This document shows positions 24,118 through 39,790 of a stretch of DNA of 64,000 nt, piece after piece. The DNA is from Candidatus Melainabacteria bacterium (GTDB lineage: Bacteria; Cyanobacteriota; Vampirovibrionia; 2-02-FULL-35-15). Where the stretch lies: positions 58,523 through 122,522 of the forward strand of contig JACPSL010000025.1 of the NCBI GenBank assembly GCA_016193285.1, given 5' to 3'. A program made the position numbers and the translations under genes. Under the pieces are notes generated by a model, which had not been told where the DNA came from, searched no databases, and worked only from the letters and a program-made list of their open reading frames with translations. Numbering within the stretch: position 1 is the stretch's first letter; every line of letters begins with the position of its first letter.

Positions 24118-24197
24118 ATTTAACCTGCCTTTAAAGATATTCAAGCTTAATTTAAACATTTTATCAAATGCTAATTTGGGGTATAATAAAGTTAACC

Positions 24198-24386
24198 ATG
24201 AGTTCAAAACAAAAAAGCAAAAAAGAGAAAGAAGAAGACTGGATTTATGATCCAATTGTTGTTAAGAATGTACTTCGTGCCAAAAAGGAAGTAGATGAAA
24301 TTTTAAAAAAGGGTGGTCACTTAACTACTATGGAGGAATTGCTAGAGAAGTTTCATAAGGAAGATGCAAAGAAAATTCAAGATTAG
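24198..24386 (+). CDS. putative antitoxin (small protein overlapping the start of a RelE/ParE-like gene)
   Basis: A 62-aa charged protein whose stop overlaps the ATG of the downstream toxin-like reading frame, the typical TA arrangement. Confidence 0.4.
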   Translation: MSSKQKSKKEKEEDWIYDPIVVKNVLRAKKEVDEILKKGGHLTTMEELLEKFHKEDAKKIQD

Positions 24387-24651
24387 CTATTCTCCAAAGG
24401 CTGAAAGAGATTTAGAGAGATTTCGTAAAAGATATTGAAAATCATATAAAGATTTTATGTCATTATTACCTGCTTTGGAGTTGGATCCCTATGGTATTGG
24501 TAAACCTTTAAAAGGTGAATTTAAGGGATTGTATTCACTTCATTTTGGAAGAAAGCCTGAATGTCGTGCAATGTATGAAATAAAAAAGGATCTGGTAATA
24601 GTTGTTATATTAAGAATCGGAACTAGAGAAAATTTTTATGATATCTTTTAA
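24364..24651 (+). pseudogene. RelE/ParE-family toxin disrupted by two frameshifts
   Basis: Three consecutive frames give MQRKFKISYSPKAERDLERFRK / DIENHIKIL / LLPALELDPYGIGKPLKGE...YEIKKDLVIVVILRIGTRENFY. Together these reconstruct a canonical RelE-like protein. Confidence 0.55.
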
Positions 24652-24653
24652 GA

Positions 24654-25337
24654 ATGAAAGAAATAATCCTAGGCAAAAGTGTGCAAGGTAGGGAAATAAA
24701 AGGTTATTCTTTTGGGGATAAAGGATCTTTTAATAAGACACTAATGATTGGTGGTATACATGGGGTTGAAATACAATCAAAAGAAATTTGTGAGTTATAT
24801 TTAAGCAAAATAAATGAAGCAAAAGATAAAAAATTTCCAAACGATTTCTATCTACTTTTAATTCCATGCTTAAATCCTGATGGTATGGCTCTTAAGATAA
24901 GAGGTAATGCAAATGGTGTTGATTTAAACAGAAACTTTCCTTCAAACACATGGGAAAGTTCTTCACTAGCTGGAAACAGTTCTTACTTTCCAGGCATAAA
25001 ACCAGCCAGCGAGCCAGAGACAAAAGTCATTGTAGATCTTTTAAATAAATATAATTTTAAAAACATTATTGCAGTTCATACAAACTATACAATTCAGTTT
25101 CCAAATCCACCAATGATAAACTACGATGGTGAGCAGTCTCGTGAGCTTGCAGAAAAACTAAGTGTAGCAACCGGGCTTATGGTACATGCAGACATTGGTT
25201 ATCCAACTCCTGGCTCTCTTGGTACATGGATAGGAAAAGATTTAAAAAAAGTTTCAGTTACTGTTGAACTTGATCACACTAAAACTACAGAAGAACTTTA
25301 TAAAAAACATGGAAGATTCTTTGAAGTAGGGTATTAA
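24654..25337 (+). CDS. M14-family zinc carboxypeptidase-like protein (murein peptide amidase MpaA-like)
   Basis: Zn ligand motifs (GGIHGVE, NPDG...NRNF, H in AVHTNY), 227 aa. Confidence 0.65.
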   Translation: MKEIILGKSVQGREIKGYSFGDKGSFNKTLMIGGIHGVEIQSKEICELYLSKINEAKDKKFPNDFYLLLIPCLNPDGMALKIRGNANGVDLNRNFPSNTWESSSLAGNSSYFPGIKPASEPETKVIVDLLNKYNFKNIIAVHTNYTIQFPNPPMINYDGEQSRELAEKLSVATGLMVHADIGYPTPGSLGTWIGKDLKKVSVTVELDHTKTTEELYKKHGRFFEVGY

Positions 25338-25341
25338 ACAA

Positions 25342-25386
25342 TTGACATTTTACCTACTCACGAGTATACTCTTTAAGAGTAGGTAA
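25342..25386 (+). promoter_or_regulatory. near-consensus sigma70-type promoter (TTGACA-17-TATACT) overlapped by a 10-bp inverted repeat (TTACCTACTC-N17-GAGTAGGTAA)
   Basis: Seen directly upstream of the ATG at 25390. Confidence 0.4.
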
Positions 25387-25389
25387 ATT

Positions 25390-26778
25390 ATGAATTTTAT
25401 AAACAGAAAAAGCGAGCTTGAAACATTAAGCAAGAAATGGGATGAAAAAAAACCTCACTTCTTTATTGTCTACGGGAAAAGAAGAGTAGGAAAAACTGAA
25501 TTAATAAAACAGTTTATTAAAAACAAAAATGGTATTTATTTCTTATCAGATAAAAGAACTGAGATTGAACAATTAAAAGAGCTAAGTAATATTATTGCTG
25601 AGCATTATAATGACTCTTTTTTAAGATCACGAGGTTTTAGCAACTGGCTTGAGATTTTTAGTTATATAAAAGAAAGAAAAAAAAAACTAATACTTGCAAT
25701 AGATGAATATCCTTATTTAATTGAAGCAAATAAAGCAATTACCTCCATATTTCAAAAAGGATGGGATGAGTATTTAAAAAACGAAAATGTTTTTTTAATT
25801 CTTTGTGGCTCAAGTATTTCTGTTATGGAATCAGAAGCATTAATCTATAAATCTCCATTATACGGAAGAAGAACAGGTCAGATTTTACTTAAACCTCTTT
25901 TATTTAAAGAAAGTGCAAAATTTTTCCCAAAAAAGAACTTCTCTGATTTTTTGTCAATTTTTACTATTACAGGTGGTATACCAGCTTACTTATTGCAAAT
26001 AGAACCTGATTTAAGTTTAAGGAAAAACATAGAAAGAAAAATATTTTCAAGAACAGAGTTCTTACATAATGAAGTAGAATTTATTTTAAAAGAAGAATTA
26101 CGAGAACCCAAAAATTACTTCGCAATATTAAAAGCTCTATCGTTTGGAAAAACCAAATTTAGTGAAGTAGCTAATGAAACAGGCTTAACGAAAAATGTTT
26201 TAACAAAATATTTGAATACTCTTGAAAGGCTTCAGTTAATTGAGAAAGAAACCCCAGTTACAGAAAAAATACCTGAAAAATCCAGAAAAGGAATTTATAA
26301 GATTTCTGATAATTTTTTTAAGTTTTATTTTCAATTTATTTATCCAAATAAAAGTTATATTGAATTAGAAAATTATTCCGAGGTAAATAGAAAGCTTGAT
26401 GAATCATTTAACATTTTAGAGTCTCAGTGCTATGAAAAAGTTTGCATGGAGCTTGTTCTTGATTTTCAGGATAAATTTTTTATTTTTGAAAGAATTGGAA
26501 GATGGTGGGAAAAAGATAATGAAATTGATATCGTGGCTACTTCATCAAGAACAAAAGAAATATTGTTTGGGGAAGTAAAATGGTCATCAAAGCAGGTAGG
26601 GACAAATATTCTTGAGGCTTTAAAATCAAAAGCAAAATTAGTAGACTGGAATATAAACAATAGAAAAGAATATTATGTCTTATTTGGCAAAAGTGGTTTT
26701 ACTCCTTCATTAATTAAGCAAGCCAGGAAAGAAAATGTGTTGCTTGTTCACCAAGACAAGGCAAAATTTAATTCTTAG
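25390..26778 (+). CDS. AAA-type ATPase of the DUF234 family (archaeal-ATPase-like)
   Basis: Walker A GKRRVGKTE, a Walker B-like LAIDEYPYL, and a C-terminal DUF234-like segment; 462 aa. Confidence 0.65.
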   Translation: MNFINRKSELETLSKKWDEKKPHFFIVYGKRRVGKTELIKQFIKNKNGIYFLSDKRTEIEQLKELSNIIAEHYNDSFLRSRGFSNWLEIFSYIKERKKKLILAIDEYPYLIEANKAITSIFQKGWDEYLKNENVFLILCGSSISVMESEALIYKSPLYGRRTGQILLKPLLFKESAKFFPKKNFSDFLSIFTITGGIPAYLLQIEPDLSLRKNIERKIFSRTEFLHNEVEFILKEELREPKNYFAILKALSFGKTKFSEVANETGLTKNVLTKYLNTLERLQLIEKETPVTEKIPEKSRKGIYKISDNFFKFYFQFIYPNKSYIELENYSEVNRKLDESFNILESQCYEKVCMELVLDFQDKFFIFERIGRWWEKDNEIDIVATSSRTKEILFGEVKWSSKQVGTNILEALKSKAKLVDWNINNRKEYYVLFGKSGFTPSLIKQARKENVLLVHQDKAKFNS

Positions 26779-26790
26779 TTGATTGTGTAA

Positions 26791-26837
26791 AAAAAACAAA
26801 AAGATTTTTTGAGGTGAGGTGAGAGTGATGGGGTAGG
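26791..26837. repeat. island repeat family A, copy 1 (AAAGATTTTTTGAGGTGAGG + G-rich tail)
   Basis: One of five imperfect copies at 26791, 27551, 28251, 29076 and 29549. Each lies immediately 3' of a minus-strand cassette. Confidence 0.7.
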
Positions 26838-26856
26838 AAATTCTTCTGTTTTTGTT

Positions 26857-27054
26857 TTAAGATGCTTTTCTAACTATTTTTATTTCTGAGACATATTTTG
26901 ATTTATCAGGGTCTTTTTTTGCTATTTTACGCAGGTAATTCATGATCCTTGTCGGATTGTTTCCAAAACGAGCAGTAAGTGCTCTACCTCTGGCTCTAGT
27001 TTCTTCAACTACGGGGTCAAACCATTTAGCATTACTTTTTTTTCTTTTTTTCAT
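26857..27054 (-). CDS. small basic protein, partner of the upstream PIN protein (family shared with 28304..28459 and 39791..39988)
   Basis: A conserved D-P-[LV]-x-E...Y core shared by three paralogs, each directly downstream of a PIN gene. Confidence 0.5.
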   Translation of the reverse strand: MKKRKKSNAKWFDPVVEETRARGRALTARFGNNPTRIMNYLRKIAKKDPDKSKYVSEIKIVRKAS

Positions 27055-27063
27055 ACACTTTAA

Positions 27064-27525
27064 TTATACCCTGAGTTCAAGTGGTGTAACAATTTCAGGG
27101 AGAAATAGACCTAATGTTGCATTTATATTTTTCATATGTATTTTCTTGTTTACGTTTGCTAGATGGGCACAGTTCCAGGTTAATAAGATATCAATTTTGT
27201 AAACTGAAGCAAATGCTAGATGCAATGCATCTCTCGTATCTTTTAATGGCATTAATTTATTCTTAAGATAGATTTCAATAATCTTATCAACTTGTTCTAT
27301 AGGATTTAATATATGGATGCCTTTTGTTAGCTTTATTGCATATATTTGATTTGGGAAATTTCCTCCTTTTAGTTCTTCTAAGACAAAATTGCTTATATAT
27401 AAATCATAAAAATGTTTTTCATTGTTCCACCATTCTCTTGTTCTCTTAATATGAACATCAAGCTCTGATCTTTCATCAACATAATAACTAAAAATAGTTG
27501 TATCTAAATAAACACTTTGTTTCAT
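27064..27525 (-). CDS. PIN-domain protein (VapC-like toxin), paralog 1
   Basis: N-terminal V-Y-L-D-T-T acidic motif and C-terminal DALHLAFASV...LLTWNCAHL region shared with the other two PIN paralogs. Confidence 0.65.
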   Translation of the reverse strand: MKQSVYLDTTIFSYYVDERSELDVHIKRTREWWNNEKHFYDLYISNFVLEELKGGNFPNQIYAIKLTKGIHILNPIEQVDKIIEIYLKNKLMPLKDTRDALHLAFASVYKIDILLTWNCAHLANVNKKIHMKNINATLGLFLPEIVTPLELRV

Positions 27526-27550
27526 AATACATTTAATTTTAGCACTCTAC

Positions 27551-27608
27551 AAACACGAGAAAGATTTTTTGAGGTGGGGTGGGAGTGGTGGGGGGTAATG
27601 GGGTGAGG
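27551..27608. repeat. island repeat family A, copy 2 (longest G-tract: GGTGGGGTGGGAGTGGTGGGGGGTAATGGGGTGAGG)
   Basis: Seen directly. Confidence 0.7.
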
Positions 27609-27623
27609 TAATTAAATAGCAAC

Positions 27624-27866
27624 CTATGCAACTCGAAAGTTTTTCCCAATCGGAATAAAATTATCTGTGTGTCCTTTTTCCAACTTATTCTTAATCTCTT
27701 CAAATTTACAAACTTGTTCGGGTGTGAAAAGAATCTCTCCACACATTTCACAAACTTCTACATAAACATCAATTAATGCTGAATTGTTTCCACCATTAAT
27801 AGTGTGGATGATCTTTTTTATTTCAATTCTATCTGAACCACACGATGGGCATTTAAAGTTTTGCAT
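27624..27866 (-). CDS. YgiT-type (MqsA-like) zinc-finger protein, putative antitoxin
   Basis: CPSCGS...(20 aa)...CEMCGE zinc ribbon in an 80-aa protein. Its start lies 2 nt after the stop of the upstream toxin-like ORF. Confidence 0.6.
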   Translation of the reverse strand: MQNFKCPSCGSDRIEIKKIIHTINGGNNSALIDVYVEVCEMCGEILFTPEQVCKFEEIKNKLEKGHTDNFIPIGKNFRVA

Positions 27867-27868
27867 TG

Positions 27869-28186
27869 TTATTTCCTTTTCTTATATTCTACCCATTTCT
27901 TTGGATTAGGCCTATAAACAGTAATTAGAATGGCTATTTGAGATCCCTTATCCAGTGCCCATACAGTATGAATAGGCTCATTTTTATTATTAAAACTTAA
28001 TACTAAACACGACGGCAGCGGCTTACTACTAGGATAGTCTTCTATTACTTCAGCATGCTTAATAGATGTTTTTATTTCAAGGATCGAAATATTGTCAGCA
28101 TCTTTTTCTTGAAGAGCATGTTGAGTAATTCTAAAATTATCTGATTGAATGGCTGACTTTAAGTCTTCAAAATTTATGAATGTATT
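27869..28186 (-). CDS. DUF4258-like toxin-family ORF with no ATG start (possible pseudogene or non-canonical start)
   Basis: Stop-to-stop ORF that is not in the supplied track. Its translation ...RITQHALQEKDADNISILEIKTSIKHAEVIEDYPSSKPLPSCLVLSFNNKNEPIHTVWALDKGSQIAILITVYRPNPKKW matches the HA...R.I...YP.DKP.PS.L.......P.H.V.A......I.ITVY.P....W pattern of this toxin family. Confidence 0.45.
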   Translation of the reverse strand, partial: NTFINFEDLKSAIQSDNFRITQHALQEKDADNISILEIKTSIKHAEVIEDYPSSKPLPSCLVLSFNNKNEPIHTVWALDKGSQIAILITVYRPNPKKWVEYKKRK

Positions 28187-28250
28187 CTACAACAAGTGAT
28201 CTAATATACATGTAACCAAAGGTTACATAAGTATTTTAATTAACATTACA

Positions 28251-28298
28251 AAAACACAAGAAAGATTTTTTGAGGTGAGGAGTAAGGGGATAGAGTGA
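28251..28298. repeat. island repeat family A, copy 3
   Basis: Seen directly. Confidence 0.7.
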
Positions 28299-28303
28299 CT
28301 TAC

Positions 28304-28459
28304 TTATGCTGTTTTCTTGCTCACTTGTTTTTTAAGTTTTGCTGCTTCTTCTCTAATATATTTTACATATTCTGAAGCAGACATCTTTTTTGTCTCTTCG
28401 TAGATTTTTCTTCTTATTTTATGTAATTCTTCAAGCGGATCTTTTTCTTTTCTTTTCAT
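28304..28459 (-). CDS. small basic protein partner of PIN paralog 2
   Basis: MKRKEKDPLEELHKIRRKIYEE... aligns with the other two partners. Using the internal Met (not the tracked start at 28507) removes the 38-nt overlap with the PIN gene. Confidence 0.5.
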   Translation of the reverse strand: MKRKEKDPLEELHKIRRKIYEETKKMSASEYVKYIREEAAKLKKQVSKKTA

Positions 28460-28469
28460 ATGATTCTCC

Positions 28470-28988
28470 TTATTGTGAAACAAATTCTCTTGGTGAAACA
28501 ATTTCAATTAAGCTATAACCTTCTCGTAAATTAATTACGTGAACACCTTTAATAGTTCTAGCTCGTACGATATGTTGAAAGTTCCATGAGACAATAAAAT
28601 CACAATGATTTAAACTAGCAACAGCAATGTGAATAGCATCATTGATAGCATTAGAAGGCATCAATCCTTCATTAGTATAAATCTTAGCTAGATTATATGA
28701 TTCATTGCTTGGAGTTAGAATCTCAGGTTGATATTTTTCAACCAATCTCAATAACTGTTTACGCCTTGTGTCATAAGCTCTATTAATTTCAACTTCAACA
28801 ACTTCTGATATACAAAGTAAATGACTTTTACTTTTACCATAAACTTCTAAAAAATCTATAGTTAGCCTGTACTCACTTCTATTGGTTTCAAGAGCTAAAT
28901 TCCATATAGAGGTATCAATATAAAGCTTTGTTTTCTTAATCATTATAATGATTATAACAGCTAGTTGTTCTGTCATGATATTCAACAA
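28470..28988 (-). CDS. PIN-domain protein (VapC-like toxin), paralog 2
   Basis: KLYIDTSIWN...DAIHIAVASL...SWNFQHIV...IEIVSPREF is close to paralog 3. The likely true start is MIKKTKLY at 28943, behind a TGnTATAAT box. Confidence 0.65.
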   Translation of the reverse strand: MLNIMTEQLAVIIIIMIKKTKLYIDTSIWNLALETNRSEYRLTIDFLEVYGKSKSHLLCISEVVEVEINRAYDTRRKQLLRLVEKYQPEILTPSNESYNLAKIYTNEGLMPSNAINDAIHIAVASLNHCDFIVSWNFQHIVRARTIKGVHVINLREGYSLIEIVSPREFVSQ

Positions 28989-29075
28989 AAAATATTTCTA
29001 AAGAAAGGAGCAAAAGAAGATCTTCTTGAACTAAATTACTACTTCGCTAGAAACTAGATGATAGAAGAACTTTCT

Positions 29076-29118
29076 AAAAAACACAAAAGATTTTTTGAGG
29101 TGAGGAGTAGGGGGATAA
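29076..29118. repeat. island repeat family A, copy 4
   Basis: Seen directly. Confidence 0.7.
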
Positions 29119-29427
29119 CACATCATCAGAGCGACACATCAAATATTAAGTCTTCATTCAAATTTTATAGATGTGACTTTTGGTTGCGTGAATTTTTAAT
29201 TCAATATGATATATTTACGAGCATGATCACTGAAGATAAAAAATATATCTCAAGTGTTTTAAAGAATTTAGGGTTCGCATTTCTAACACCTTTGGGCTCA
29301 GTTACTTTTCAATATCTGGTTCTAAAAAAGAGCTTCTTTAGTGGACACACGGCCTTATGTTCATTAGCATCATTTGTTGGTTGGTGATTATTGTTTTTAG
29401 GGTATAATTTTGTTAAGGAGAAGAAAA

Positions 29428-29547
29428 ATGATAAGTAACCTTGAAGGTTTAATAGCAGTTGGCTCAATATTAATTCCTGCAATACTTTTAACTGTATACT
29501 TCATATACGATCAAAATAAAACTAAAAAAAGAGAAAAGAAAAGTTAA
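29428..29547 (+). CDS. possible 39-aa single-TM peptide (MISNLEGLIAVGSILIPAILLTVYFIYDQNKTKKREKKS)
   Basis: Not in the supplied track (below its size cut-off). TATAAT at 29403 and AAGGAG at 29415 precede the ATG at 29428. One TM helix plus a basic tail. Confidence 0.3.
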   Translation: MISNLEGLIAVGSILIPAILLTVYFIYDQNKTKKREKKS

Positions 29548-29548
29548 A

Positions 29549-29590
29549 GAAAAACACAAAAAGATTTTTTTGGTGAGGGATGGTGGAAGG
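29549..29590. repeat. island repeat family A, copy 5
   Basis: Seen directly, immediately 3' of the five-gene minus operon. Confidence 0.7.
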
Positions 29591-29603
29591 TTATTACTAA
29601 ATT

Positions 29604-30386
29604 TTATTCTACAATAATTATTGTTTTCCCAGATGGTGAGAACTTAAATTCAATACCTTCATTTTTTCTTGACAACACTTTTCTAAGAGCAATGTCAAAG
29701 TCTTGCCAATTTTGAACATTGTTTTGCATATCATTTGTAAAATCTATTTGCTCGGCAGACTCAAATGAATAACCTAGAATGTCGTTATCCACTAGTACAC
29801 GCCTTGGTATAACTCTAATATTTCCATTTTTACTTGTAGTAACTGCATAGTGTAGGTTCCCTCTCCATGTGCCTTCTCGATGAATAATCGTAAATATTGT
29901 TTTACCTGGCTCTGATTCACCTTTTAGTTCTCTTAGTTTAGGAGTTAGCTTTCTAAGTGAGCTTACTATATCAGATGTATCAAGACCATTAATTTGATAT
30001 TCTTTTAAAGCTAAAGCAGCAGCTATCAATTCTAATACGCTTGGATCAAGGGGCGCTCTTTCATGTGTGGCGTTCTCGCAGCTTTTTAAAAATGACCAAA
30101 ATTCCTCATACCTACCATACCTATCAGCTGCGTCCTGAAAACTAATATGAATTCTTTCAAGTTCTTTTTTTGCTTCGTTTAAGTTAGTTATTTGTTCTTT
30201 TGTTTCACTAGTTGTTTCTGCTCTACTCTTGAATTTGTCAGTTGTTGACTTGCTGAATATTGTATATGAGTCAGGAGTTGGCTTTAATATTCCTGATGGT
30301 TTTGGTTTCCCTTCTTCTTTTTTCTGTGCCTGCCCAACAGCTAGTGAGGGAAGCATGTTGTGTGTCATTAATGATACTGAATACAT
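29604..30386 (-). CDS. hypothetical protein (last gene of the caspase-like operon)
   Basis: A 260-aa ORF; no motif recognised. Confidence 0.5.
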   Translation of the reverse strand: MYSVSLMTHNMLPSLAVGQAQKKEEGKPKPSGILKPTPDSYTIFSKSTTDKFKSRAETTSETKEQITNLNEAKKELERIHISFQDAADRYGRYEEFWSFLKSCENATHERAPLDPSVLELIAAALALKEYQINGLDTSDIVSSLRKLTPKLRELKGESEPGKTIFTIIHREGTWRGNLHYAVTTSKNGNIRVIPRRVLVDNDILGYSFESAEQIDFTNDMQNNVQNWQDFDIALRKVLSRKNEGIEFKFSPSGKTIIIVE

Positions 30387-30480
30387 AAAAAATCAGCTCC
30401 TAGAAATACAATGCTTGTATGCAAATAAATTTGATAATGGTACAAAACTAACAGGTTCTTTAGTTCAAAAAACTGCACAT

Positions 30481-32274
30481 TTATGCAGCAATAATTTCTT
30501 CATTAATTGTTAATCTTTGATTCAATGGATTTAAATTGTTTATTAACTTAATCTTAACTGGTTTTTTATCGGGGGGTTGTTCTGTAGAGTATTGAATCAC
30601 TTTAGCGTTTTGTTTGTATTTGCTGTAATGTGCTAACTTTTTTACAGTGTGCATAGCATGAAAAATATTTCCAAAGGATGGATTTAAAGGCTCATTTCTT
30701 ATTCTCTGGTATTTTAAAAACTTATAATACCAGGATAAATAATAGTTAAATGCTGAAGATCTATCTTCACCATCAAACCCTTTCATGCTGTGATTAACGA
30801 CTAATGCTTCTTTTGCAGTTAAGGCAGCATATGACTCTCCATCTCCTGAAGAAGAAGTAATTATCGTCACATCTTTTACAGGAAGCTGCTTATTTCCAAT
30901 CTTAAAGTTTTGCAAGCAAGCAATTATTTTATCACCTTGAATTTCAGATCTACATGAGTCTGCAATTATAACAAACTTCATGCTCTTACAAAGTGGTCCA
31001 CCATTATCATCTAAGCTTGCAATTGCTTTTGCAATCTCTTCAGACGTAATATCACTGTCTGAAGCTTTTATACATCCATTCTTATCTCCATGCATATTAT
31101 AGTGAAATATGAAGGTTGTTTTACCACTAGCTTTTGCATTGTTTGCAGCTTTTATAAATCTATCTAAGATATTTTTTTTTGTAGCTGTTAAAGCTTTTGG
31201 TAAGGAACCATCTTTAACTTGTGGTAGTTCATCCCATATCCCACGGTTTTCTACACAAACAGTAAAGTCACTAATATTAAAATTTTCTTTGTAAGTCATT
31301 CCTATTTCAGCAAGGTCGTTTTCTATCTCAACTAATTCTCCAGGCACACTTGCTAAGAAACAAGCCGTACTCCCATCTTTTGGAATGTCAATTTTATAAA
31401 AATTCTCCCAGGATAATTGTTGTCCCTTAAAATTATTAGTTTCTAATTTTATTTTTTGTTTAATAAGTTCAATTAACTCATCTTCTGTTTTTATGTTACT
31501 TAATTCTAGACAACTTAATCCAATAAAAACAGGCTCACTATTTTTACTTGTAAAGTTATTAGCTAAGATGAATTCAAACACTCTGTGTATATTTCCATCA
31601 CCATTAGATATTCCAATACATTCAAGAGGAATACCAGTATCTTCCTTAACCTTATTTAAAACTGCATCCAGATTAAAATTCTTATCATTTTCTTGAAGGA
31701 TTTCAGTGAGTGTTTTATTTAAGAATACTTGGGTTTCCTTAAATGTAACTGTTTTTTGAAGGTTATTCAAAATAGCTTTTAGTTTTTTTGCAGTAGAAAT
31801 TACTTCACTAGCATATGGTTCATATTCATATAAACTTTTTGCTTGGTTTTCAAGGATAAAGTTAGGATCTATCAGGGCTAATTTAAATGCTGCTTCTTTT
31901 CTTATTTCTCTTGCTTTTTTGCTGCCAAGAGTTTCTTCTAATTTTTTGTAGTCGGTAAATATTAATCTTGGATTTTTTTCAACAGATGCATCTATACCTT
32001 CTTTAGGTATTTTTTCTAATTCTTCTTGATTCTTCTTATTTATTTCAACAGCGTTTGTAAAAAAAACAGATTTTATGAATCTTCCAAGTAATATAAATGG
32101 TGAAAAAAGTATTTTTAGCATTTTTACGAAAGTGCTACTTTTATCTTCAAGTACTTGAACTGATTGATACTGAGAGTTATTGGATTTAGCAAGTAAGGAG
32201 TTATTATGAGAACTAACATGTTGCAGATTATTCTTGTCCTCAACTTGATTTCTAAATCTAAAGCTAATTTCCAT
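30481..32274 (-). CDS. caspase/metacaspase-like (clan CD, C14-type) cysteine protease-domain protein
   Basis: The C-terminal half has FIFHYNMHGDKNG ... (46 aa) ... FVIIADSCRSE. This is a His-Gly / Asp-Ser-Cys dyad with the spacing and flanking beta-strand pattern of metacaspases (FHYSGHG ... DSCHSG). Confidence 0.6.
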   Translation of the reverse strand: MEISFRFRNQVEDKNNLQHVSSHNNSLLAKSNNSQYQSVQVLEDKSSTFVKMLKILFSPFILLGRFIKSVFFTNAVEINKKNQEELEKIPKEGIDASVEKNPRLIFTDYKKLEETLGSKKAREIRKEAAFKLALIDPNFILENQAKSLYEYEPYASEVISTAKKLKAILNNLQKTVTFKETQVFLNKTLTEILQENDKNFNLDAVLNKVKEDTGIPLECIGISNGDGNIHRVFEFILANNFTSKNSEPVFIGLSCLELSNIKTEDELIELIKQKIKLETNNFKGQQLSWENFYKIDIPKDGSTACFLASVPGELVEIENDLAEIGMTYKENFNISDFTVCVENRGIWDELPQVKDGSLPKALTATKKNILDRFIKAANNAKASGKTTFIFHYNMHGDKNGCIKASDSDITSEEIAKAIASLDDNGGPLCKSMKFVIIADSCRSEIQGDKIIACLQNFKIGNKQLPVKDVTIITSSSGDGESYAALTAKEALVVNHSMKGFDGEDRSSAFNYYLSWYYKFLKYQRIRNEPLNPSFGNIFHAMHTVKKLAHYSKYKQNAKVIQYSTEQPPDKKPVKIKLINNLNPLNQRLTINEEIIAA

Positions 32275-32352
32275 AATTAAAAAGATATGTTTAGGATTTT
32301 TATCCTAATATTTACAAAGTAAAAAGAAATTAATTTTTGATAATTTTTATGA

Positions 32353-33378
32353 TTAAGTGTTTTGAGTAACGTAATTCCAGGTAGGTGTAAATATCTTATC
32401 CTTTATAGCATTGCCAGCAAATTGATTTAAAAGTCCACCAGCACAAATTCCAGTGCATATTGTAAGCCCAATTGCTACCCAACCTACAGGGCTTATTAAA
32501 GCAAATGCTGCAGCTATTCCAAGTCCACACAAAGCTATATTTGTCCAAGCTTCACTAGTTCGCCCACCGTGAAATTTATTAACAATGCCAGCTATTTCAA
32601 AACCTGCTCCAAGTACTGACGCAATACCACCTAACCATTTAAGAGTACCTGCAAAAAATCCTTTCCATGAAGCTCCTGTTCCATTGATCGCTCGTCCTAC
32701 CAATGTTCTAGTCGACCATAACTTTTTATCATAAGATGCCAATTTAAATGCTTTATCAGCACCCATATATTTAGCTCTTTCGAAACCACTTGCAATTCCA
32801 CCTAGTTGAGCCATATTTACAGGATGAGTAAAAGCATCTCTTGCATTAGTACCTTTAAGAGTTTGTATAATGTCGTACTTATCTAATAAGAAATCTGGAT
32901 CTTTTATATGATCTTGTATGAGTTTGCATATTTTTAAGAAGTCTTCAGCATTAGATATTTTAAAGTTGCTTGCTAGTTCTTCTAACTTTTCTTTATTATA
33001 TTTTTTGTCTTCATCAAGGTTATCATAATTATCCTGTTCAGTATTTTTTCCTAACTGATCAATTATGTTACCTATTTGAATTACATCGAGCTTTCCACCT
33101 GTTACAGTATAAAAATGTTCTGCAAGAGATCTCATTTCTCTTTTATCTCGTTCTATTTGTCCATTAAGTTCTAAGAGTCCTTGATTATCTCTGGGTATTC
33201 CAATAAGAGCTGACTGAATAGCACTTTCTCTTGCAGTATAGCTTAAGCCTTTTTTGTTTTTATATGCTTCTCTTAGTTTTGCTAATTTAGGTTCAACATC
33301 ACTACCACCATCTCCAAGAGCTGTACTTGTTCTTCTACTACTACCAGTACGTGGTACAAGTATTTTAAGTATTATCAT
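32353..33378 (-). CDS. glycine-zipper membrane protein (soluble N-domain plus C-terminal 2-3 TM Gly/Ala-zipper helices)
   Basis: C-terminus LGGIASVLGAGFEIAG...RTSEAWTNIALCGLGIAAAFALISPVGWVAIGLTICTGICAGG...KDKIF; paralogous to the C-terminal domain of 37321..38121. Confidence 0.55.
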   Translation of the reverse strand: MIILKILVPRTGSSRRTSTALGDGGSDVEPKLAKLREAYKNKKGLSYTARESAIQSALIGIPRDNQGLLELNGQIERDKREMRSLAEHFYTVTGGKLDVIQIGNIIDQLGKNTEQDNYDNLDEDKKYNKEKLEELASNFKISNAEDFLKICKLIQDHIKDPDFLLDKYDIIQTLKGTNARDAFTHPVNMAQLGGIASGFERAKYMGADKAFKLASYDKKLWSTRTLVGRAINGTGASWKGFFAGTLKWLGGIASVLGAGFEIAGIVNKFHGGRTSEAWTNIALCGLGIAAAFALISPVGWVAIGLTICTGICAGGLLNQFAGNAIKDKIFTPTWNYVTQNT

Positions 33379-33502
33379 AATATTCTCCTAAAATAATATT
33401 TTGTTATTCACTACATACAAAGCAATATGTTGTAGTTAGTTGATAGGAGATTATTGAAAGGGAGCAAGATTTATTGTTAACAAACTTATAACTAATTTGT
33501 TC

Positions 33503-35800
33503 TTATTTTTCTTTAGGATCAAATCGTCTGTCATTCACAGATATAGGTATGTTTAAATATTTATTATGTTCATTTTGAGGGACGCCAGCAGCAACAAGTG
33601 TGTTACGGTCAAATTTTTGTGTTGGATGGAGTAATTCGTGTTGTTCTTGATCGTCCTGATCCTTCTTTGTTGGAACAAGTCTTTCAATACTATCTTTTAC
33701 TAGATATGCCCAGGAGTAAGATGCTGCCCTATTTAATGATTCTGTTGGCAAAGGATAAACATGAGGTCTTCCAGCAAAAAGTTTTAATTCGTCTGTTTCT
33801 CCTTTTTCTTTACGGTGTGCTATTAATATCTTTATACAGTCTAAAAGCCTAAGAGCTGTTTTATTGTCAGGATTATTTTCATCTTTTATATTTTCATCAT
33901 TAATTTTGCTTTCATCTGGTGCTTTAAGATCTACTTTTAATGTTTCTGAAATATCTTTTAAAAGACAATCAGTTTTAACTACATATTCTTTAAAATGACT
34001 TGGTTTGTTGTTTGTATCAAGAACAGCTATTAGAATAGTACACCAATCATCTCTGTAATAAACTTTTACTCTTAAATTATTATGGTTAAATGCTGGCAAT
34101 GATTTACCTAGTACTGATCCTATTTTCTCTTCTAGTTTTTTTTCATCTGTTGTTGTTTCGTAGATATTCTCTGGCAATTTAATTGAACCTACAAATTCTT
34201 TGTCTAAATCTTTTCTTTTTTTTCTACTTAACGCAGAATCAAACGAACTTCTTAATTCCTCTCCATCTTTACCTTGAATCTCCCTTATATAGCCACTTTT
34301 TAAATCTGCCAAATCTCCTGCAAAAATAACTTTTCTACTTCTCTTCTCTTGTATTTTAAATGCTTCAAGAATATCTTGATTTGGGTCAGTAGTAGCTTTT
34401 ATAAAAACTACATGCTCAATAAATAATTTTCTTAGCTTTTCTGTTGTATCATCATTGTCATTGCTCTTTAATTTCGATTTTTCATCCTTATCTATTATTT
34501 TGGCCTTCTCTAGCTCATCTAGAAATTTATCTTTAGTAAATGTAATTGAATAAGCTTGGTAGTTTCCTGCTGCATCTTTTTTCCAGATTAGCGATTCACA
34601 GCATAGAGTCTCACTTGGAGTACCTTCACTAGTCTTAAAAGTGGAAAGTGTAATTCTGTATTCATCTTCATTAATAAACGGCGGCCTTCTATTTGGTGGA
34701 ATATTTGTAGTCGAAGATTTTGGGTAACCTTTTAAATAATCATTAACTACTGGATTATTTTTTTCAATCTTAACTTGTGAAATAGATTCTGGTCTATAGC
34801 TAGAATCTGTTGATTTTCTGTATAGATCTTCGTATGTTGTACTTTCTATAAATTTTGCACCATCTTGAGCTAGTTGTTCTTGATCATCACTAGCTACATA
34901 TGTTTTATACAATAGCTCTGTAAACCTCTGATGTCCATTTTTAAATTCAACTTCACTACCAGGAGGGCGATAACTTCTGCCTGTTGGGCTTAAAAATATT
35001 ACATTTTTAACCTTGTCCTGCTCAGATGAGTTGACAGCTAAATCCTCAAATTCCCTAGTCCCCCACAACGCAATTTTTATTTTTTTATCAGGATCAGTTG
35101 ATCCAAAATATTCAATTGTCTGTTTAGCTTTAGCTAATGGAATAATAATTTGTCTGTTTTCTTTTTTACTAGAAAAGTTTTCATCTCCTACTATGTAGTG
35201 TATATCCTTTCTGTCTACTATCCACGCTGTTACAGTCTGTAGTGTTTTACCTTCTCTATCTTTTACTTTATAAGTACCAAGACTTATAACATTTGAATCT
35301 TCTTCATGTGGAGTTTCTTTTTTGTATCGATTTATGTGTGCTAATAGATCTCTTGGGGTGTCTGTTTTTTCAAGCCTTACAATTATTTCAGGTTTAGGAG
35401 GAGAAGGTCTTGTATCTGATGGTGGAGCTGGTTTTGGAGTAGTGCTACCAGTAGAAGAGTCCTCTATCAGCTTTCCATCTTTTGACAAATTTAATAACTC
35501 TAGTACATTTTTCTTTTGCTCATTGCTTAGAGATGATTCTCCTAAATGTCTAATGTAATCAAAATAAAGATTTTGTTTTGAACTAAATTCATCTTTTGTA
35601 ATAAGAATTTGGTTAAAGTTACTAAGATGACCAATACTTAAAGCAGCTTTTAATTCTTCTGTGGTAAGTAGTCCATCTTTTTTTCCAACTACCTTACCAG
35701 AGCGATCCAGTATTCCAATTGAAAGATCAGTTTTTAATAGCTGTTGTATTTTTTCTATTCTTTGTTGTATAGAAGGAGTTGTTGTAGCAGGTGGATCCAT
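33503..35800 (-). CDS. large hypothetical protein with a Pro/Thr-rich linker
   Basis: A 765-aa ORF with a low-complexity linker (STGSTTPKPAPPSDTRPSPPKPE); no catalytic motif recognised. Confidence 0.5.
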   Translation of the reverse strand: MDPPATTTPSIQQRIEKIQQLLKTDLSIGILDRSGKVVGKKDGLLTTEELKAALSIGHLSNFNQILITKDEFSSKQNLYFDYIRHLGESSLSNEQKKNVLELLNLSKDGKLIEDSSTGSTTPKPAPPSDTRPSPPKPEIIVRLEKTDTPRDLLAHINRYKKETPHEEDSNVISLGTYKVKDREGKTLQTVTAWIVDRKDIHYIVGDENFSSKKENRQIIIPLAKAKQTIEYFGSTDPDKKIKIALWGTREFEDLAVNSSEQDKVKNVIFLSPTGRSYRPPGSEVEFKNGHQRFTELLYKTYVASDDQEQLAQDGAKFIESTTYEDLYRKSTDSSYRPESISQVKIEKNNPVVNDYLKGYPKSSTTNIPPNRRPPFINEDEYRITLSTFKTSEGTPSETLCCESLIWKKDAAGNYQAYSITFTKDKFLDELEKAKIIDKDEKSKLKSNDNDDTTEKLRKLFIEHVVFIKATTDPNQDILEAFKIQEKRSRKVIFAGDLADLKSGYIREIQGKDGEELRSSFDSALSRKKRKDLDKEFVGSIKLPENIYETTTDEKKLEEKIGSVLGKSLPAFNHNNLRVKVYYRDDWCTILIAVLDTNNKPSHFKEYVVKTDCLLKDISETLKVDLKAPDESKINDENIKDENNPDNKTALRLLDCIKILIAHRKEKGETDELKLFAGRPHVYPLPTESLNRAASYSWAYLVKDSIERLVPTKKDQDDQEQHELLHPTQKFDRNTLVAAGVPQNEHNKYLNIPISVNDRRFDPKEK

Positions 35801-35805
35801 AGTTA

Positions 35806-36933
35806 TTAATTTGTAAGTGGAACAAAATTTCTTACTCCTTTACCTTCTGTATGTTCAACTTCAGCAATACTTCCATCAATAAGATTAGTAATTGTTTTAT
35901 CACTTGCACTAATACTTAAAACTAAGTCTTGCATAAGATTCATACCTCTTTCCCTAAGTGAAATTAATTTATTATAAAAATCTTCTCCAAATCTTTCTAT
36001 GACAGAATTTTTACCGGCAGGGCGTTGAAGGTAGTCATCTTGTCCAAGAAATATAGCTTTTTTGTTTTTAATTTCGTTTGCATTTTCTCCTTTTAAAGTG
36101 AGAGCTGAAACAAAGTCAATTAATTTTTGACCTCTTAAAAATACATAGCCTTCATCTTTTTCTAATTTATCTAAGTAGTCTTGTTTATATGTTCCTCTAA
36201 ATGCAAGTCTTGTATTACGGGATGAGTCTTGGTCTGAGTACCATATTATAAAAGCAGGTTTATTTGTACCTTTTCTAATATAGTGAACTATTTTTACCTT
36301 ATTCCCAGCATCTACTGATTTGACATCTGATGGTTTAGTCCCTTCTGCAATATCAGTATCTATTGCTCTTTTTATATCATCAGGTATAGTTCCTGCTGGT
36401 GTTGCACTTGTTGATGTTACAGTATCTGCTGGTTTTATTTTCTTAATTAGATCTTCTAATTTTGTAAGTATTGCTTTTTGATCACCAGTTAAATCAGTAG
36501 CTGCTTTAAGCTTGTCAATTAAGTCAAGAAGTTTTTCTTCAGCTTCTTTATTCTTAAAACTAAAACTACCGTCCGGATTTCTAACAATTAATCTTTGTGA
36601 AATTAGTATGACTACTGGTTCCACAAAGCCCGGGAAAATTTTGCTTAAGAATTCTTTAGCTTGATTTATTTCCTCTGGAGTATAATTAAAGTCATCTGGC
36701 TCGAGAGTTTCATTTGCACCTCTTTTTGCAATTTTTTTAACTCTTTCTTGATCTACTTCATTAGTACCTCCTGCTTTGATAAAGCGATCAACATTCTTGT
36801 TCAGTTGATCATACAGTGCTCCTTGGGCAGGATTAGTCTTTTTTTCTTCTTCAATCTTATTTTGAAATTCTTTCTTACTAGTAGGTTTTCCTGCGTTAAA
36901 TAATTTACTGATTAAATCTAATGTTAAACCCAT
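35806..36933 (-). CDS. hypothetical protein (first gene of the minus-strand operon)
   Basis: A 375-aa ORF, 5 nt upstream of the next gene. Confidence 0.5.
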   Translation of the reverse strand: MGLTLDLISKLFNAGKPTSKKEFQNKIEEEKKTNPAQGALYDQLNKNVDRFIKAGGTNEVDQERVKKIAKRGANETLEPDDFNYTPEEINQAKEFLSKIFPGFVEPVVILISQRLIVRNPDGSFSFKNKEAEEKLLDLIDKLKAATDLTGDQKAILTKLEDLIKKIKPADTVTSTSATPAGTIPDDIKRAIDTDIAEGTKPSDVKSVDAGNKVKIVHYIRKGTNKPAFIIWYSDQDSSRNTRLAFRGTYKQDYLDKLEKDEGYVFLRGQKLIDFVSALTLKGENANEIKNKKAIFLGQDDYLQRPAGKNSVIERFGEDFYNKLISLRERGMNLMQDLVLSISASDKTITNLIDGSIAEVEHTEGKGVRNFVPLTN

Positions 36934-36986
36934 GACTTTCCCTCCAAATATTTATACATTTATAGAAAGGAAAATATTAATTAAAA

Positions 36987-37028
36987 TTGACAGCTAAAAA
37001 AATATTAAACTTTGTAACTTGCTGTCAA
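36987..37028. promoter_or_regulatory. inverted repeat TTGACAGC-N26-GCTGTCAA in the divergent intergenic region
   Basis: Seen directly, ~55-95 nt upstream of the minus-strand operon start. Both arms are TTGACA -35-like hexamers facing outward. Confidence 0.35.
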
Positions 37029-37320
37029 TATTCTGTTTGCACTTACTTTGTAGTATCTGAGTAAGTAGAACCTCAAGTTCTATTTATTCTTAATACAGTT
37101 CTTACTTTGAATCTTAGTAGTTTTCTATTAAGGTCTTGAAGTAAACTTATTATTAAATCAAATATTTAAGCATAATATTTCTTTAGCTTAATAAAGCTAA
37201 ATGCAATTATAGATTGGTTTTGATAAGCTTATATGTTTAAGTATTTGATCTAAGGTTACTAGTTAATTAAGGTTAAGAAGTGATTAAGTAAAATTAAGTA
37301 AGAAGTAAAATAACAAAACA

Positions 37321-38121
37321 ATGTTTATATTAATAGCAGTTGTTGGAAAAGTTTTAACGATAGCAGCAGGAACTCCACTTGTAGCTTTTAAGAAAGCATT
37401 TAATGTTTTGACTGCAAGTAAAAGTGATATTCCTAAGTTATATTTAGAGGCTGAGCAAATGGCAGGCAAAGTGGCTATTGAAAAAGGATGGTTTGAATAT
37501 TTAGGTCATCTAATAGAAAGATTAGGTTATGGTATAAGAGCACAATTAGGTTTATATGGAATTGATAAGAATGGAGCTATTAAACATTTGTCTGAACTTT
37601 CAAGTGAATTTAAAGAGAAAGGTGGTTTACTGTCTGCTCTATCTAAAGGTTATCCTAAATTTGGAGAAGCTATGAAAGCTGCTACTACAGCTATTCCTGA
37701 GCTAGGAGGAAAAGCAATATTAGGTTTTAGAGGATTGGGAGCTATGGGTTTAGGTGCTCTTGGTGCTTTAGGAGTAGGTATATTTTCAATTGGTCTTATA
37801 ATTAGTTCTTATAGAGCAATAAATGCAAAAAGTAAAACGGAATGGGCAGGACCTGTAAAAACTACTACGTGGGATAAATTAACTACTTTGGCAGGACTAG
37901 CAGGTACTGCAGGTGCTGCAGCTTTATTTATTCCAGGAGCAAGTATAGCTTCGTTTGTCTTAATACCAGCTGCAGCAATAATGGCTGCTACTGGATTTGT
38001 CATGGATAAGATTTATAGTGGAACTACTTTTTATCATATGCCTGATCAGCTACCATATCCATTGAACGATGTAGCAAGATCAGTATTTAACGTAGATAGG
38101 CATATCCCTAGAATGCAATAA
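37321..38121 (+). CDS. glycine-zipper membrane protein, paralog of the 32353..33378 C-terminus
   Basis: GLGAMGLGALGALGVGIFSIGLII...KSKTEWAG...LAGLAGTAGAAALFIPGASIASFVLIPAAAIMAATGFVMDKIY. Confidence 0.55.
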   Translation: MFILIAVVGKVLTIAAGTPLVAFKKAFNVLTASKSDIPKLYLEAEQMAGKVAIEKGWFEYLGHLIERLGYGIRAQLGLYGIDKNGAIKHLSELSSEFKEKGGLLSALSKGYPKFGEAMKAATTAIPELGGKAILGFRGLGAMGLGALGALGVGIFSIGLIISSYRAINAKSKTEWAGPVKTTTWDKLTTLAGLAGTAGAAALFIPGASIASFVLIPAAAIMAATGFVMDKIYSGTTFYHMPDQLPYPLNDVARSVFNVDRHIPRMQ

Positions 38122-38155
38122 GTTTTGCTCTTGACATTAAAGTTAAAAATGTGTT

Positions 38156-38668
38156 ATGGTTGGATTAAAACCATATTTAAGATTTAAAAAAAGGTTGATA
38201 ATAAAAATGGATGTAGTTAGTTTATATGGCTCATATGTACAAGAAATAGTAATTCCAAAGTATCAGATTAATCAAAAACTTCTGAAAATGGTAGCTGCTA
38301 ATAAGTATGAAGAAATTGCTTCTCGTGAACTACCTAAATTGCATCGTGAAGCAAACAAACTTTCATTAGACTTAAAAGAAGCAGGAGGAGATCCAAAAAA
38401 AGCAAAAAAAGTAAAAAAACAACTAAGAGCCTTAGAAGTAAGAGCAAATAAACTAAATGAAATGTTTGCAGTTGTCAGTGACGATGAATTAGCAGCTGCT
38501 AAAGTAAATCCATCTAGAAAACAAGTTGAACAAATTATAAATGCTACTGTTGAATTAAATCAGCCTACTAAAAGTGAAACCCCACAAGAAAGTGTAAAAT
38601 CCCAAGTTGGTAAAAAATTAGTACGGGACAGCATGAATAATATTAAAAACAGTCAACAAGCTGCCTAA
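38156..38668 (+). CDS. hypothetical coiled-coil, lysine-rich protein
   Basis: ORF directly downstream of the Gly-zipper gene; the true start may be the internal MDVVSLY. Confidence 0.4.
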   Translation: MVGLKPYLRFKKRLIIKMDVVSLYGSYVQEIVIPKYQINQKLLKMVAANKYEEIASRELPKLHREANKLSLDLKEAGGDPKKAKKVKKQLRALEVRANKLNEMFAVVSDDELAAAKVNPSRKQVEQIINATVELNQPTKSETPQESVKSQVGKKLVRDSMNNIKNSQQAA

Positions 38669-38689
38669 ATTAGTTAGTTAGTTGAATGT

Positions 38690-38959
38690 TTAACTTCTTA
38701 AGAGACTAATTATACGTTCTAGAATTTTAAATCTATTTTCAATAAGCATGGATATAAGATTAACTCCTGCAGTTAAATATTTCATCTGAATTGTTAATGT
38801 GCCAATAGCTTTCTGTGCAATTGCTTTAGCTGTTGCGCTTGCAGTTGGATCCACTATAATCGCGTTATTCTGTGCAAGTTGTCCTTCAATTGTATTAGCT
38901 TCAGTCGTTACCCTTCCTAATTCACTACCTAAATCTAATCCGCCTACTGCTCCTGGCAT
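38690..38959 (-). CDS. hypothetical small Ala/Gly-rich protein
   Basis: An 89-aa ORF convergent with 38156..38668. Confidence 0.3.
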   Translation of the reverse strand: MPGAVGGLDLGSELGRVTTEANTIEGQLAQNNAIIVDPTASATAKAIAQKAIGTLTIQMKYLTAGVNLISMLIENRFKILERIISLLRS

Positions 38960-39096
38960 TGCTTTTCTCCTTTAATATAAGGTTCTTAAATAGTTGCTTA
39001 CCTTCAAGTTATACAAATATATTTGCTAAAAAAATTTGATAGCAAAATTTAAAACTTAATACTCTTACTTAAAAACAAGTTAAAGAATTAAAAATA

Positions 39097-39669
39097 TTAC
39101 ACTTCTAATTTACGAGTAATATGGAAATATGAATTTTCAATTTGGGTTATCATTTCATTAAGTGTTTTATTGTCAAACTTTAAATCATTTAGTTTAATAA
39201 TCCCTTTAAATATTCCTATTTTATTTAAGTCAATTCCTTTTTCAATAATTTTTTGGGTGGGTATATTATCAGAGATAAAAAAGGAAAATTTATCATATTC
39301 AATATATAAAGGATTAATTTTTTCAAGAATGTTTTCAATGAACAAGATTATAGGAAAGTTATTACTTATACATGCATAAGATTGTGCTTTAGAACCAACT
39401 GAAAAAGCAATGTTAATTTTTCTGTCAGTAAGATACCTGTTTAAAAATACAGATCTGCAAATCGTTGAAAACTCTTCAAATAATCCAAATATTGATATGA
39501 TCCATCCAATAATTTTTGCCTCTAATTTATTTTCTTCCAGAACTTTTTTTATTTCGCTCGTGTTTTGAGCAGTAATAGTTACATCATGACCTCTTGACTT
39601 TAGTTCACTACTTAGTGCCTTTATAAAAGGAATGTGTTTAGGGTTATCAATGTCAAGCCAGATGTGCAT
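39097..39669 (-). CDS. DUF354-like protein fragment (N-terminal ~190 aa of a ~340-aa family; likely truncated)
   Basis: N-terminus MHIWLDIDNPKHIPFIKAL...LKSRGHDVTITA matches the conserved DUF354 start (MKIWIDI.N.PHV.F). A family B promoter/stub repeat sits in front of it. Confidence 0.4.
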   Translation of the reverse strand: MHIWLDIDNPKHIPFIKALSSELKSRGHDVTITAQNTSEIKKVLEENKLEAKIIGWIISIFGLFEEFSTICRSVFLNRYLTDRKINIAFSVGSKAQSYACISNNFPIILFIENILEKINPLYIEYDKFSFFISDNIPTQKIIEKGIDLNKIGIFKGIIKLNDLKFDNKTLNEMITQIENSYFHITRKLEV

Positions 39670-39727: not shown

Positions 39728-39790
39728 CTTGCTTTTTTATCCGCTGCTCCATAATGCTTGACAGTTTTGCTGAGTGAATCAAAGCTTAAG

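Follow-up and report, generated by a model that had tools for sequence, protein, structure and literature searches.

The analysed DNA is a stretch of 64,000 nucleotides (64 kb; hereafter the window) from a Candidatus Melainabacteria bacterium (contig JACPSL010000025.1, positions 58,523 to 122,522 of the forward strand), in which a short direct repeat separates toxin–antitoxin (TA) and other small accessory genes lying downstream of a gene for an M14/MpaA-like zinc carboxypeptidase (hereafter M14). On the basis of DNA alignments and of loci in related genomes, the repeats are interpreted with moderate confidence as pseudo-3′-ends of the M14 gene that arose by serial, homology-guided "insertion with long target duplication". 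Six copies of the repeat bound five unrelated cassettes (A–E) of 0.43–1.45 kb each, three of which are TA pairs, and the copies are designated c0, which is the M14 gene's own end, and c1 to c5, which are orphan copies. The inserted block (25338–29603) comprises 4.27 kb between M14 and the convergent downstream genes, and its components are listed below in their order in the window.

24654–25337, + strand: M14/MpaA-like zinc carboxypeptidase gene, target gene and template of the repeats (Pfam Peptidase_M14, E 6e-25)
25289–25337, + strand: c0, functional M14 3′ end, reading ..EELYKKHGRFFEVGY and stop (repeat search, Smith–Waterman)
25338–26784, + strand: cassette A, promoter-like site (25342–25370) and ATPase_2/DUF234 gene (25390–26778) (Pfam ATPase_2 1e-32, DUF234 3e-22)
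26785–26835, + strand: c1, pseudo-3′-end, reading KKTKRFFEVR and stop (core scan, repeat search, alignment)
26857–27544, minus strand: cassette B, PIN toxin (27064–27525), small partner (26857–27054) and extended −10 element TGCTAAAAT (27536–27544) (Pfam PIN)
27545–27615, + strand: c2, pseudo-3′-end with an expanded G-rich tail, the sole copy with a G-quadruplex (G4) motif, reading ..RERFFEVGWEWWGVMG and stop
27624–28228, minus strand: cassette C, DUF4258 gene (27869–28186), YgiT/MqsA-type zinc-finger gene (27624–27866) and operator-like palindrome (28210–28228) (Pfam DUF4258 2e-20)
28246–28298, + strand: c3, pseudo-3′-end, reading ..ERFFEVRSKGIE and stop, also written ..QERFFEVRSKGIE and stop (Smith–Waterman 35)
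28304–28943, minus strand: cassette D, PIN toxin (28470–28943) and small partner (28304–28459) (Pfam PIN)
29061–29120, + strand: c4, pseudo-3′-end with the longest M14 homology, reading IEELSKKHKRFFEVRS.. (repeat search, Smith–Waterman)
29121–29548, + strand: cassette E, two small membrane-type open reading frames (ORFs; 29223–29387, 29429–29547), no family match
29544–29590, + strand: c5, most decayed pseudo-3′-end (indels), with the stop of the convergent flanking gene 14 nt away
29604–30386, minus strand: first gene of the flanking minus-strand block, right border of the array (gene map)

The repeat family and the end of the M14 gene

The core of the repeat, AAAGATTTTTTGAGGTGAGG, occurs at 26800, 27560, 28261 and 29086, always on the + strand and with 0–1 mismatch, where 0.05 matches are expected from dinucleotide shuffles and four matches were reached in 0 of 100 shuffles. 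Copy c5 (~29550–29578) differs from the core by indels and was recovered by a repeat search, and no further copies of the core were found on either strand of the window. The five same-orientation repeats reported in a preliminary description of this DNA are thus real, but its count overlooked a sixth, more diverged member of the family, which the repeat search placed at 25297–25343 and which is the 3′ end of the + strand M14 gene (25289–25337). In the window-wide repeat search, 25289–25327 (c0) and 29063–29101 (c4) were 85% identical over 39 nt, and a Smith–Waterman scan with the last 60 nt of the M14 gene gave scores of 50 for c4, 35 for c3 and 26–27 for c1 and c2 at a shuffle maximum of 24. 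Recognizable homology to the M14 end covers 29–57 nt per copy; its left limits vary among the copies, with c4 reaching ~13 nt further. The G+C content of the window is ~30%. The contig carrying the array was assembled from three samples, and a 123-kb contig of an NCBI metagenome-assembled genome (MAG) has the same M14 and PIN proteins, so that an assembly artefact can be dismissed.

The M14 protein has 64 homologues at 57–79% identity in Melainabacteria, and an identical protein (100%) is annotated in a Candidatus Melainabacteria MAG. The C-termini of the homologues follow the pattern ..ELYKKHGxxFEVG[VI]xx before the stop codon, and c1 to c5 can be aligned in register with the M14 ends found in the window and in five further species. 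In the + frame, all copies read ..[KR]FFEV.., or ..KKH.RFFEV.. over a longer span, with a stop soon afterwards, as in the C-terminus of the M14 family. The G-rich tail is what remains of the codons GAG GTn GGn GTn and a stop after frameshifts, A-to-G changes and small expansions. The element is thus a + strand pseudo-3′-end of M14 and not a feature of minus-strand cassettes; the orphan repeats derive from the coding 3′ end of the M14 gene. Copies c1–c3 and c5 end 6–22 nt from minus-strand stop codons, a proximity that follows from the compactness of the cassettes. In the functional end c0, the tail after FEV has two residues, compared with four to five residues in 57 of 63 homologues. The tail of c2 differs from that of c1 mostly by A-to-G changes and extra G runs (GTGAGGTGAGAGTGATGGGG versus GTGGGGTGGGAGTGGTGGGGGG), and these changes create the sole G4 motif of the window.

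Cassette content and comparison loci

Cassettes A and E lie on the + strand and B–D on the minus strand, with promoter-like sites or an operator of their own. The preliminary description had taken every unit to be a minus-strand cassette, which is correct for B–D only, as the ATPase_2/DUF234 unit and the ~430-bp unit carry + strand ORFs; the gene content that it had read (PIN pair, DUF4258/zinc-finger pair, PIN pair) is borne out by Pfam and NCBIfam, and its view of the repeats as cassette boundaries stands, with one repeat per junction. In cassette A, a strong promoter-like site (TTGACA-17-TATACT, 11 of 12 matches) directly follows the M14 stop. The PIN protein of cassette B has homologues at 76–85% identity in other metagenomes, including the loci L107, L108 and L113 described below (80–85%). 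The extended −10 element of this cassette (TGCTAAAAT) lies ~10 nt before the ATG (27526–27544, minus strand), and the PIN cassette of L108 (4225–4244) shares both the element and the very short leader; the short leader in two genomes suggests a leaderless or near-leaderless, toxin-first PIN operon. The zinc-finger protein of cassette C scored 31.2 bits against NCBIfam YgiT_finger at a cut-off of 20.2. The DUF4258 frame (27869–28186, minus strand) has no ATG, GTG or TTG after the upstream stop, and either translation begins at an unusual codon (ATA or ATT, for instance) or the gene is a pseudogene. Upstream of this DUF4258/MqsA-like pair lies a perfect palindrome, ATGTAACC-AAA-GGTTACAT (28210–28228), which resembles the published MqsA operator type, and a similar palindrome, TGTAACC-GTA-GGTTACA, precedes the PIN pair of L107 (~9326–9342). 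A comparison of the L107 cassette promoter with that of cassette C gave a borderline score of 29, equal to the shuffle maximum and driven by the similar operator palindrome. The PIN proteins of cassettes B and D, read by eye, are only distantly related, so that D is no recent duplicate and the cargo is far more diverged than the repeats.

The M14 locus was compared among related genomes, whose loci carry the labels L003, L009, L012, L103, L105 and L107; L108 and L113 label further comparison loci. The genes upstream of M14 are syntenic in six relatives (ThiF, NicO, fumarase, FAD synthetase, CPSase, shikimate dehydrogenase and Mur ligase). Downstream, a convergent minus-strand gene follows the M14 stop at 5 nt in L105 and 60 nt in L103, other genes follow in L012 and L009, and an MNT/HEPN pair follows in L003. 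Neither the cassette genes of the window nor any M14 pseudo-end was found at the M14 loci of L003, L009, L012, L103 and L105, which belong to other species (M14 71–77% identical) and have a single M14 end each. Given the conserved upstream genes and these cassette-free relatives, 25338–29603 is an insertion, in line with the earlier view of the block between the repeats as accessory DNA, which is absent from the relatives. A search of a metagenome collection with an M14 profile gave no usable relatives, as it was swamped by distant M14 proteins of at most 44% identity.

The PIN cargo of the window recurs at three loci that bear on the mechanism. In L107, a Melainabacteria genome whose M14 is 75% identical to that of the window, a PIN and antitoxin pair (80% identical) directly follows M14 and lies between two direct copies (47 nt, 91% identical) of L107's own M14 end, each of which encodes ..KKHSKFFEVGVL[Y/N] and stop. 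The distal copy shares bases with the convergent gene's stop, which identifies it as the original end. The cargo lies in the orientation opposite to that in the window, and the homology between the two (79%) is limited to the two genes; 17 of 20 bases agree between the end of the antitoxin and the M14 sequence at the right junction. In L113, the same PIN cargo lies at the end of a different gene, DUF3326, and is flanked by a 266-nt direct repeat, of which the first 60 nt are nearly identical (58/60); identity falls to ~65% over the other ~210 nt, which stay in frame, and the overall ratio of nonsynonymous to synonymous substitution (dN/dS) is ~0.5. At its start the insert carries a diverged homologue of the DUF3326 tail, and the native tail persists as an orphan ORF of 97 codons next to the convergent neighbour. 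A pure staggered-cut target-site duplication was considered for L113 and rejected, because an in-frame homologue of the gene tail stands at the start of the insert; such a diverged in-frame tail makes a random staggered-cut duplication impossible and indicates a join guided by homology to the gene. Taken together, L107, L113 and L108, in which the cargo lies in a defence island, indicate that the duplicated block is host-derived, varies in length (near identity over ~30–60 nt) and is independent of any one target gene or cargo orientation.

Several further features of these loci were recorded. In L113 (3599–3892 and 4883–5165), the orphan tail ORF is still open and shares 4 nt with the end of a convergent gene for an Xer-like recombinase; this gene follows priA, is not part of the duplicated unit and has the look of a housekeeping gene. 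Directly upstream of M14 in the window (24168–24651), a small protein is paired with a ParE-like toxin; this pair is found in L012, L103 and L105 (54–84% identity) and is absent from L003, where a GIY-YIG gene lies nearby, and from L009. The ParE-type pair is older and more stable than the downstream array. Over ~10–14 kb from M14 to a conserved cluster of a 190-aa gene and an NTP-transferase (29604–39000 in the window), large hypothetical proteins with almost no conservation are encoded; this hypervariability of the region downstream of M14 is seen across L003, L012, L103, L105 and L107, with tandem paralogues in L103 and with conserved flanks. The otherwise AT-rich genomes contain GC-rich dispersed repeats that are 91–94% identical (e.g. 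GGCTTGCCCCAGGGATAGC..) and may be miniature mobile elements; one of them apparently lies inside the HEPN/MNT pair that follows M14 in L003. Their positions are as follows.

L012, 10712–10759 and 13369–13416: GC-rich dispersed repeat
L012, 1349–1391 and 2397–2439: GC-rich dispersed repeat
L003, ~11030–11180: GC-rich dispersed repeat

Proposed mechanism and competing explanations

The following mechanism is proposed for the growth of the array. The cassettes would have entered one after another by serial insertion, each joining inside the conserved block at the gene end (..AAAAAACAY...AGATTYTTTGARGT..), and M14 would have retained or acquired a functional 3′ end including a stop codon, while each event would have left one extra copy of the block. 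As the related loci suggest, joining would have been guided by homology to the gene end, possibly through a Campbell-type single crossover of a circular cassette carrying a surrogate gene tail, or through one-sided homologous anchoring combined with a microhomology join. General recombination and repair functions may have sufficed in place of a dedicated site-specific recombinase. The homology-guided route is favoured because no integrase was found, the core lacks symmetry and the boundaries of the copies vary, and because of the results from L107 and L113. The orphan copies are scars, and they could also offer short homology blocks for later cassette loss, duplication or exchange. The order of events, the homology-guided joining and a present-day role of the copies in recombination are inferred.

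Several observations weigh against this interpretation. The 19-nt core is identical in c1, c3 and c4 and differs at one base in c2; an AGG (Arg) codon is common to c1, c3, c4 and c5 and occurs in 0 of 63 functional homologues; and the functional end c0 is the outlier, with seven differences in 29 nt. The shared core and the AGG codon mark c1–c5 as copies of one ancestral pseudo-end, and such common ancestry is not predicted by a series in which the newest unit lies next to the gene. It requires insertions into orphan copies, exchange among the arrays of a population, later replacement of the M14 allele or a conserved site borne by the cassettes. A conserved cassette-borne site is what a site-specific system would give, and on this account that rival keeps about a quarter of the probability. 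Cassette turnover is shown between species only, the TA pair that follows M14 in L003 has no flanking duplication, and the PIN cargo of L108 likewise lacks one. At 20–35 nt, the homology blocks barely reach, or fall short of, the length that RecA usually needs for efficient recombination, and a recombinase could be encoded outside the window.

Direct Pfam scans and precomputed Pfam lists for 10–53 kb revealed no integrase, resolvase or transposase family in the window. DNA folds of both strands at all five junctions showed no shared hairpin, with z-scores relative to shuffles of −0.7 to +0.6 except where the unrelated operator palindrome or flanks were included, in agreement with the earlier remark that no attC-like palindrome is visible. 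No terminator-like site was found at any copy by a terminator scan; together with the shuffle-like folds, this upholds the earlier judgement that the repeats are neither CRISPR nor intrinsic terminators. An Rfam scan of the window matched no family, and since its tRNA/tmRNA scan was empty, a tRNA-targeting island is excluded. There is no inverted repeat within or between the copies, which are direct and not alternating; Xer/dif-type modules (pdif), whose 28-bp site has inverted 11-bp arms and a 6-bp spacer, were rejected for these reasons. As an array, the exact core was absent from 185,579 species-representative genomes (the source genome lies outside this collection), where six single matches occurred at chance level in unrelated taxa (Pelagibacteraceae, Paludibacter and others), and it had no match in IMG/VR.

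Among the alternatives, a site-specific array served in trans has the most to commend it, though it is judged improbable. Here the core, AAAGATTTTTTGAGGTG, would act as an att-like site for a tyrosine or serine recombinase encoded elsewhere, and the cassettes would be integrase-less mini-elements with an attP-like M14 end, accumulating in tandem as at tRNA-gene islands, in cis-mobilizable elements (CIMEs), tycheposon remnants or clusters of integron attC sites lacking integrases (CALINs). One site per cassette in one orientation and a core that stays identical in c1, c3 and c4 despite unrelated cargo are in keeping with such a system, as is the derived AGG codon of c1, c3, c4 and c5, absent from functional genes. 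Elements that target tRNA genes are known to integrate serially, pushing older elements inward and leaving incomplete copies of the target behind. A mosaic of the flanks, with resemblance on the left side between c2 and c3 and in the tails between c1 and c2 and between c3 and c4, would fit crossovers inside the core, but it involves few bases and is a hint at most. Against a dedicated integron-like system of the kind considered in the preliminary description stand the absence of any integrase, resolvase or transposase from the window, a core without dyad symmetry or hairpin, the differing left boundaries of homology and the failure to find the core array in the genome collection or IMG/VR. The same PIN cargo elsewhere has different, host-specific duplications on its flanks (47 nt and 266 nt), of which one is at another gene and one has the cargo inverted, and the site-specific explanation is accordingly disfavoured.

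The remaining alternatives have very little probability. That the repeats are functional signals of minus-strand cassettes, such as a 3′ untranslated region (UTR), a processing or termination signal, or a G4-forming or C-rich (rut-like) insulator of TA operons, is barely credible. It would accord with the position of c1–c3 and c5 next to minus-strand stops, with a minus-strand transcript of the element that is C-rich and then has a T-rich run, with the canonical G4 motif in c2 and with the location of part of c2 at a would-be −35 or UP region of the cassette B promoter. The sequence including its tail, however, is explained base by base as a + strand coding end; fold energies match shuffles, with neither a terminator site nor an Rfam match; c0 and c4 precede + strand genes; and no copy of the element is present at the 3′ ends of the homologous PIN cassettes in L108 and L107. 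The reading of the repeats as 3′ UTR, RNA-processing or terminator signals is not supported, nor is that of a conserved G-quadruplex tail, because the canonical motif is present in one of six copies (c2, 27576–27603) and the tail is decayed coding sequence. Local duplication without mobility, in which tandem M14 ends arose by slippage or unequal crossing-over and genes were inserted by chance or the copies were homogenized by gene conversion, is also very unlikely. The derivation of c1–c5 from one ancestral pseudo-end agrees with it, and short A- and T-runs in the core could favour slippage, but five independent chance insertions would be needed, each exactly between copies. It leaves unexplained L107, with one cassette and exactly two copies, and L113, with a diverged tail and a sharp 60-nt identity block, and no relative has insert-free tandem M14 ends.

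If the homology-guided interpretation is carried further, a recombinase-independent, integron-like platform can be tentatively envisaged, in which conserved blocks at housekeeping-gene ends serve as docking sites and small, self-promoted TA or defence cassettes with surrogate tails excise through their flanking duplicates, move from genome to genome and re-integrate by homology at the orthologous gene and thereby build tandem arrays, although this extension is rather doubtful. Docking of the PIN cargo at two genes and in three genomes, together with a second array in the window, raises the prospect that such a platform may be general in these bacteria. The second array (39662–40964, minus strand) has three copies, 76–92% identical, of a 66-nt unit made up of a TATAAT promoter and the first 10–13 codons of a gene (MKKKQYKVKIEN).

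39662–39727, minus strand: 66-nt unit, TATAAT promoter and first 10–13 codons
40494–40559, minus strand: 66-nt unit, TATAAT promoter and first 10–13 codons
40899–40964, minus strand: 66-nt unit, TATAAT promoter and first 10–13 codons

The gene to which this start belongs is small and antitoxin-like and is assumed here to be DUF104-like, although no family search matched. One copy heads a 90-aa ORF with an apparent PIN remnant; one is fused to a PIN and partner pair (40016–40501 and 39791–39988) related to cassette D; and one lies directly before the conserved 190-aa gene (39097–39669), in a place where relatives lack the sequence. Elsewhere in the window, an HNH endonuclease gene and an AbiEii-type toxin gene (4282–4800 and 6825–7322) lie among housekeeping genes as further small accessory insertions.

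Relation to known modes of gene mobility

The closest published counterpart is the insertion of restriction–modification (RM) units with target duplications of 30–400 bp, which frequently include a stop or start codon, so that the target gene is not disrupted (Nobusato et al. 2000; Furuta, Abe & Kobayashi 2010, PMC2853133). Such insertions have no mobility genes, a variable duplication length and an empty site in comparison genomes, and their mechanism is unknown (PMC2853133). Furuta et al. (2010) defined them by an insert of <20 kb with addiction-type genes and without mobility genes, a duplication of >30 bp, an empty site and a repeat spanning a stop or start codon. The units in the window likewise measure 0.43–1.45 kb, three of them are TA pairs and no mobility family was found; the duplications amount to 29–57 nt in the window, 47 nt in L107 and a 60-nt near-identical block within the 266-nt repeat of L113; a single-copy empty site is present in L003, L009, L012, L103 and L105, all from other species; and the repeat spans the stop codon, with c0 giving M14 its in-frame end and stop. 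In contrast to the RM cases, the cargo here is made up of TA and further small accessory genes, the end of a single gene has taken up five insertions, which form a six-copy array, and the L113 insert brings a diverged surrogate tail that points to homology-guided joining, which the RM papers do not establish. A literature search yielded no TA example of insertion with long target duplication.

In islands at tRNA or tmRNA genes, in CIMEs and in tycheposon arrays, partial copies of the target 3′ end lie between the units, newcomers push older units inward, and the target gene is restored by an end that the element supplies (bioRxiv 10.1101/2020.12.28.424599). The direct partial copies of a target 3′ end that separate the units in the window recall this arrangement. 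The differences are that the window holds no integrase or remnant of one, that the units are only 0.43–1.45 kb long, that the target is protein-coding and that the repeat accompanying the same PIN cargo (79–85%) changes with the genome, being of the window type here, 47 nt in L107, 266 nt in L113 and lacking in L108. With integrons and CALINs the array shares one repeat per cassette in the same orientation, TA-rich content and cassettes of 0.5–1.5 kb. Unlike attC, the repeat forms no hairpin, has no R′/R″ core motifs and is the coding end of a neighbouring gene, and the cassettes lie on both strands with promoter-like sites or an operator of their own, rather than being mostly promoterless and co-oriented behind a Pc promoter. 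No intI (Phage_integrase) gene is present in the window, but CALINs can lack intI, so this alone does not exclude them.

Homology-facilitated illegitimate recombination and Campbell-type integration are laboratory-defined pathways that combine a single homologous anchor or crossover with microhomology at the other junction. They would yield both the duplicated block and the imported diverged tail; the blocks found here (20–60 nt), however, are short for RecA.

The structure described here is an array of scars of orphaned gene ends, and its TA cargo and the stacking of five events are new relative to known RM gene mobility. The movement of TA and other small addiction or defence genes where no transposase or integrase is involved is a long-standing, poorly resolved question. 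This locus would record five successive events at one site, and the related loci add that the duplicated block is host-derived and variable in length and that one join leads into an imported diverged tail; the homology-guided route has thereby become directly testable. For the annotation of such genomes, the array also carries a warning, namely that short conserved intergenic repeats near TA genes can be orphaned gene ends and not regulatory or att elements.

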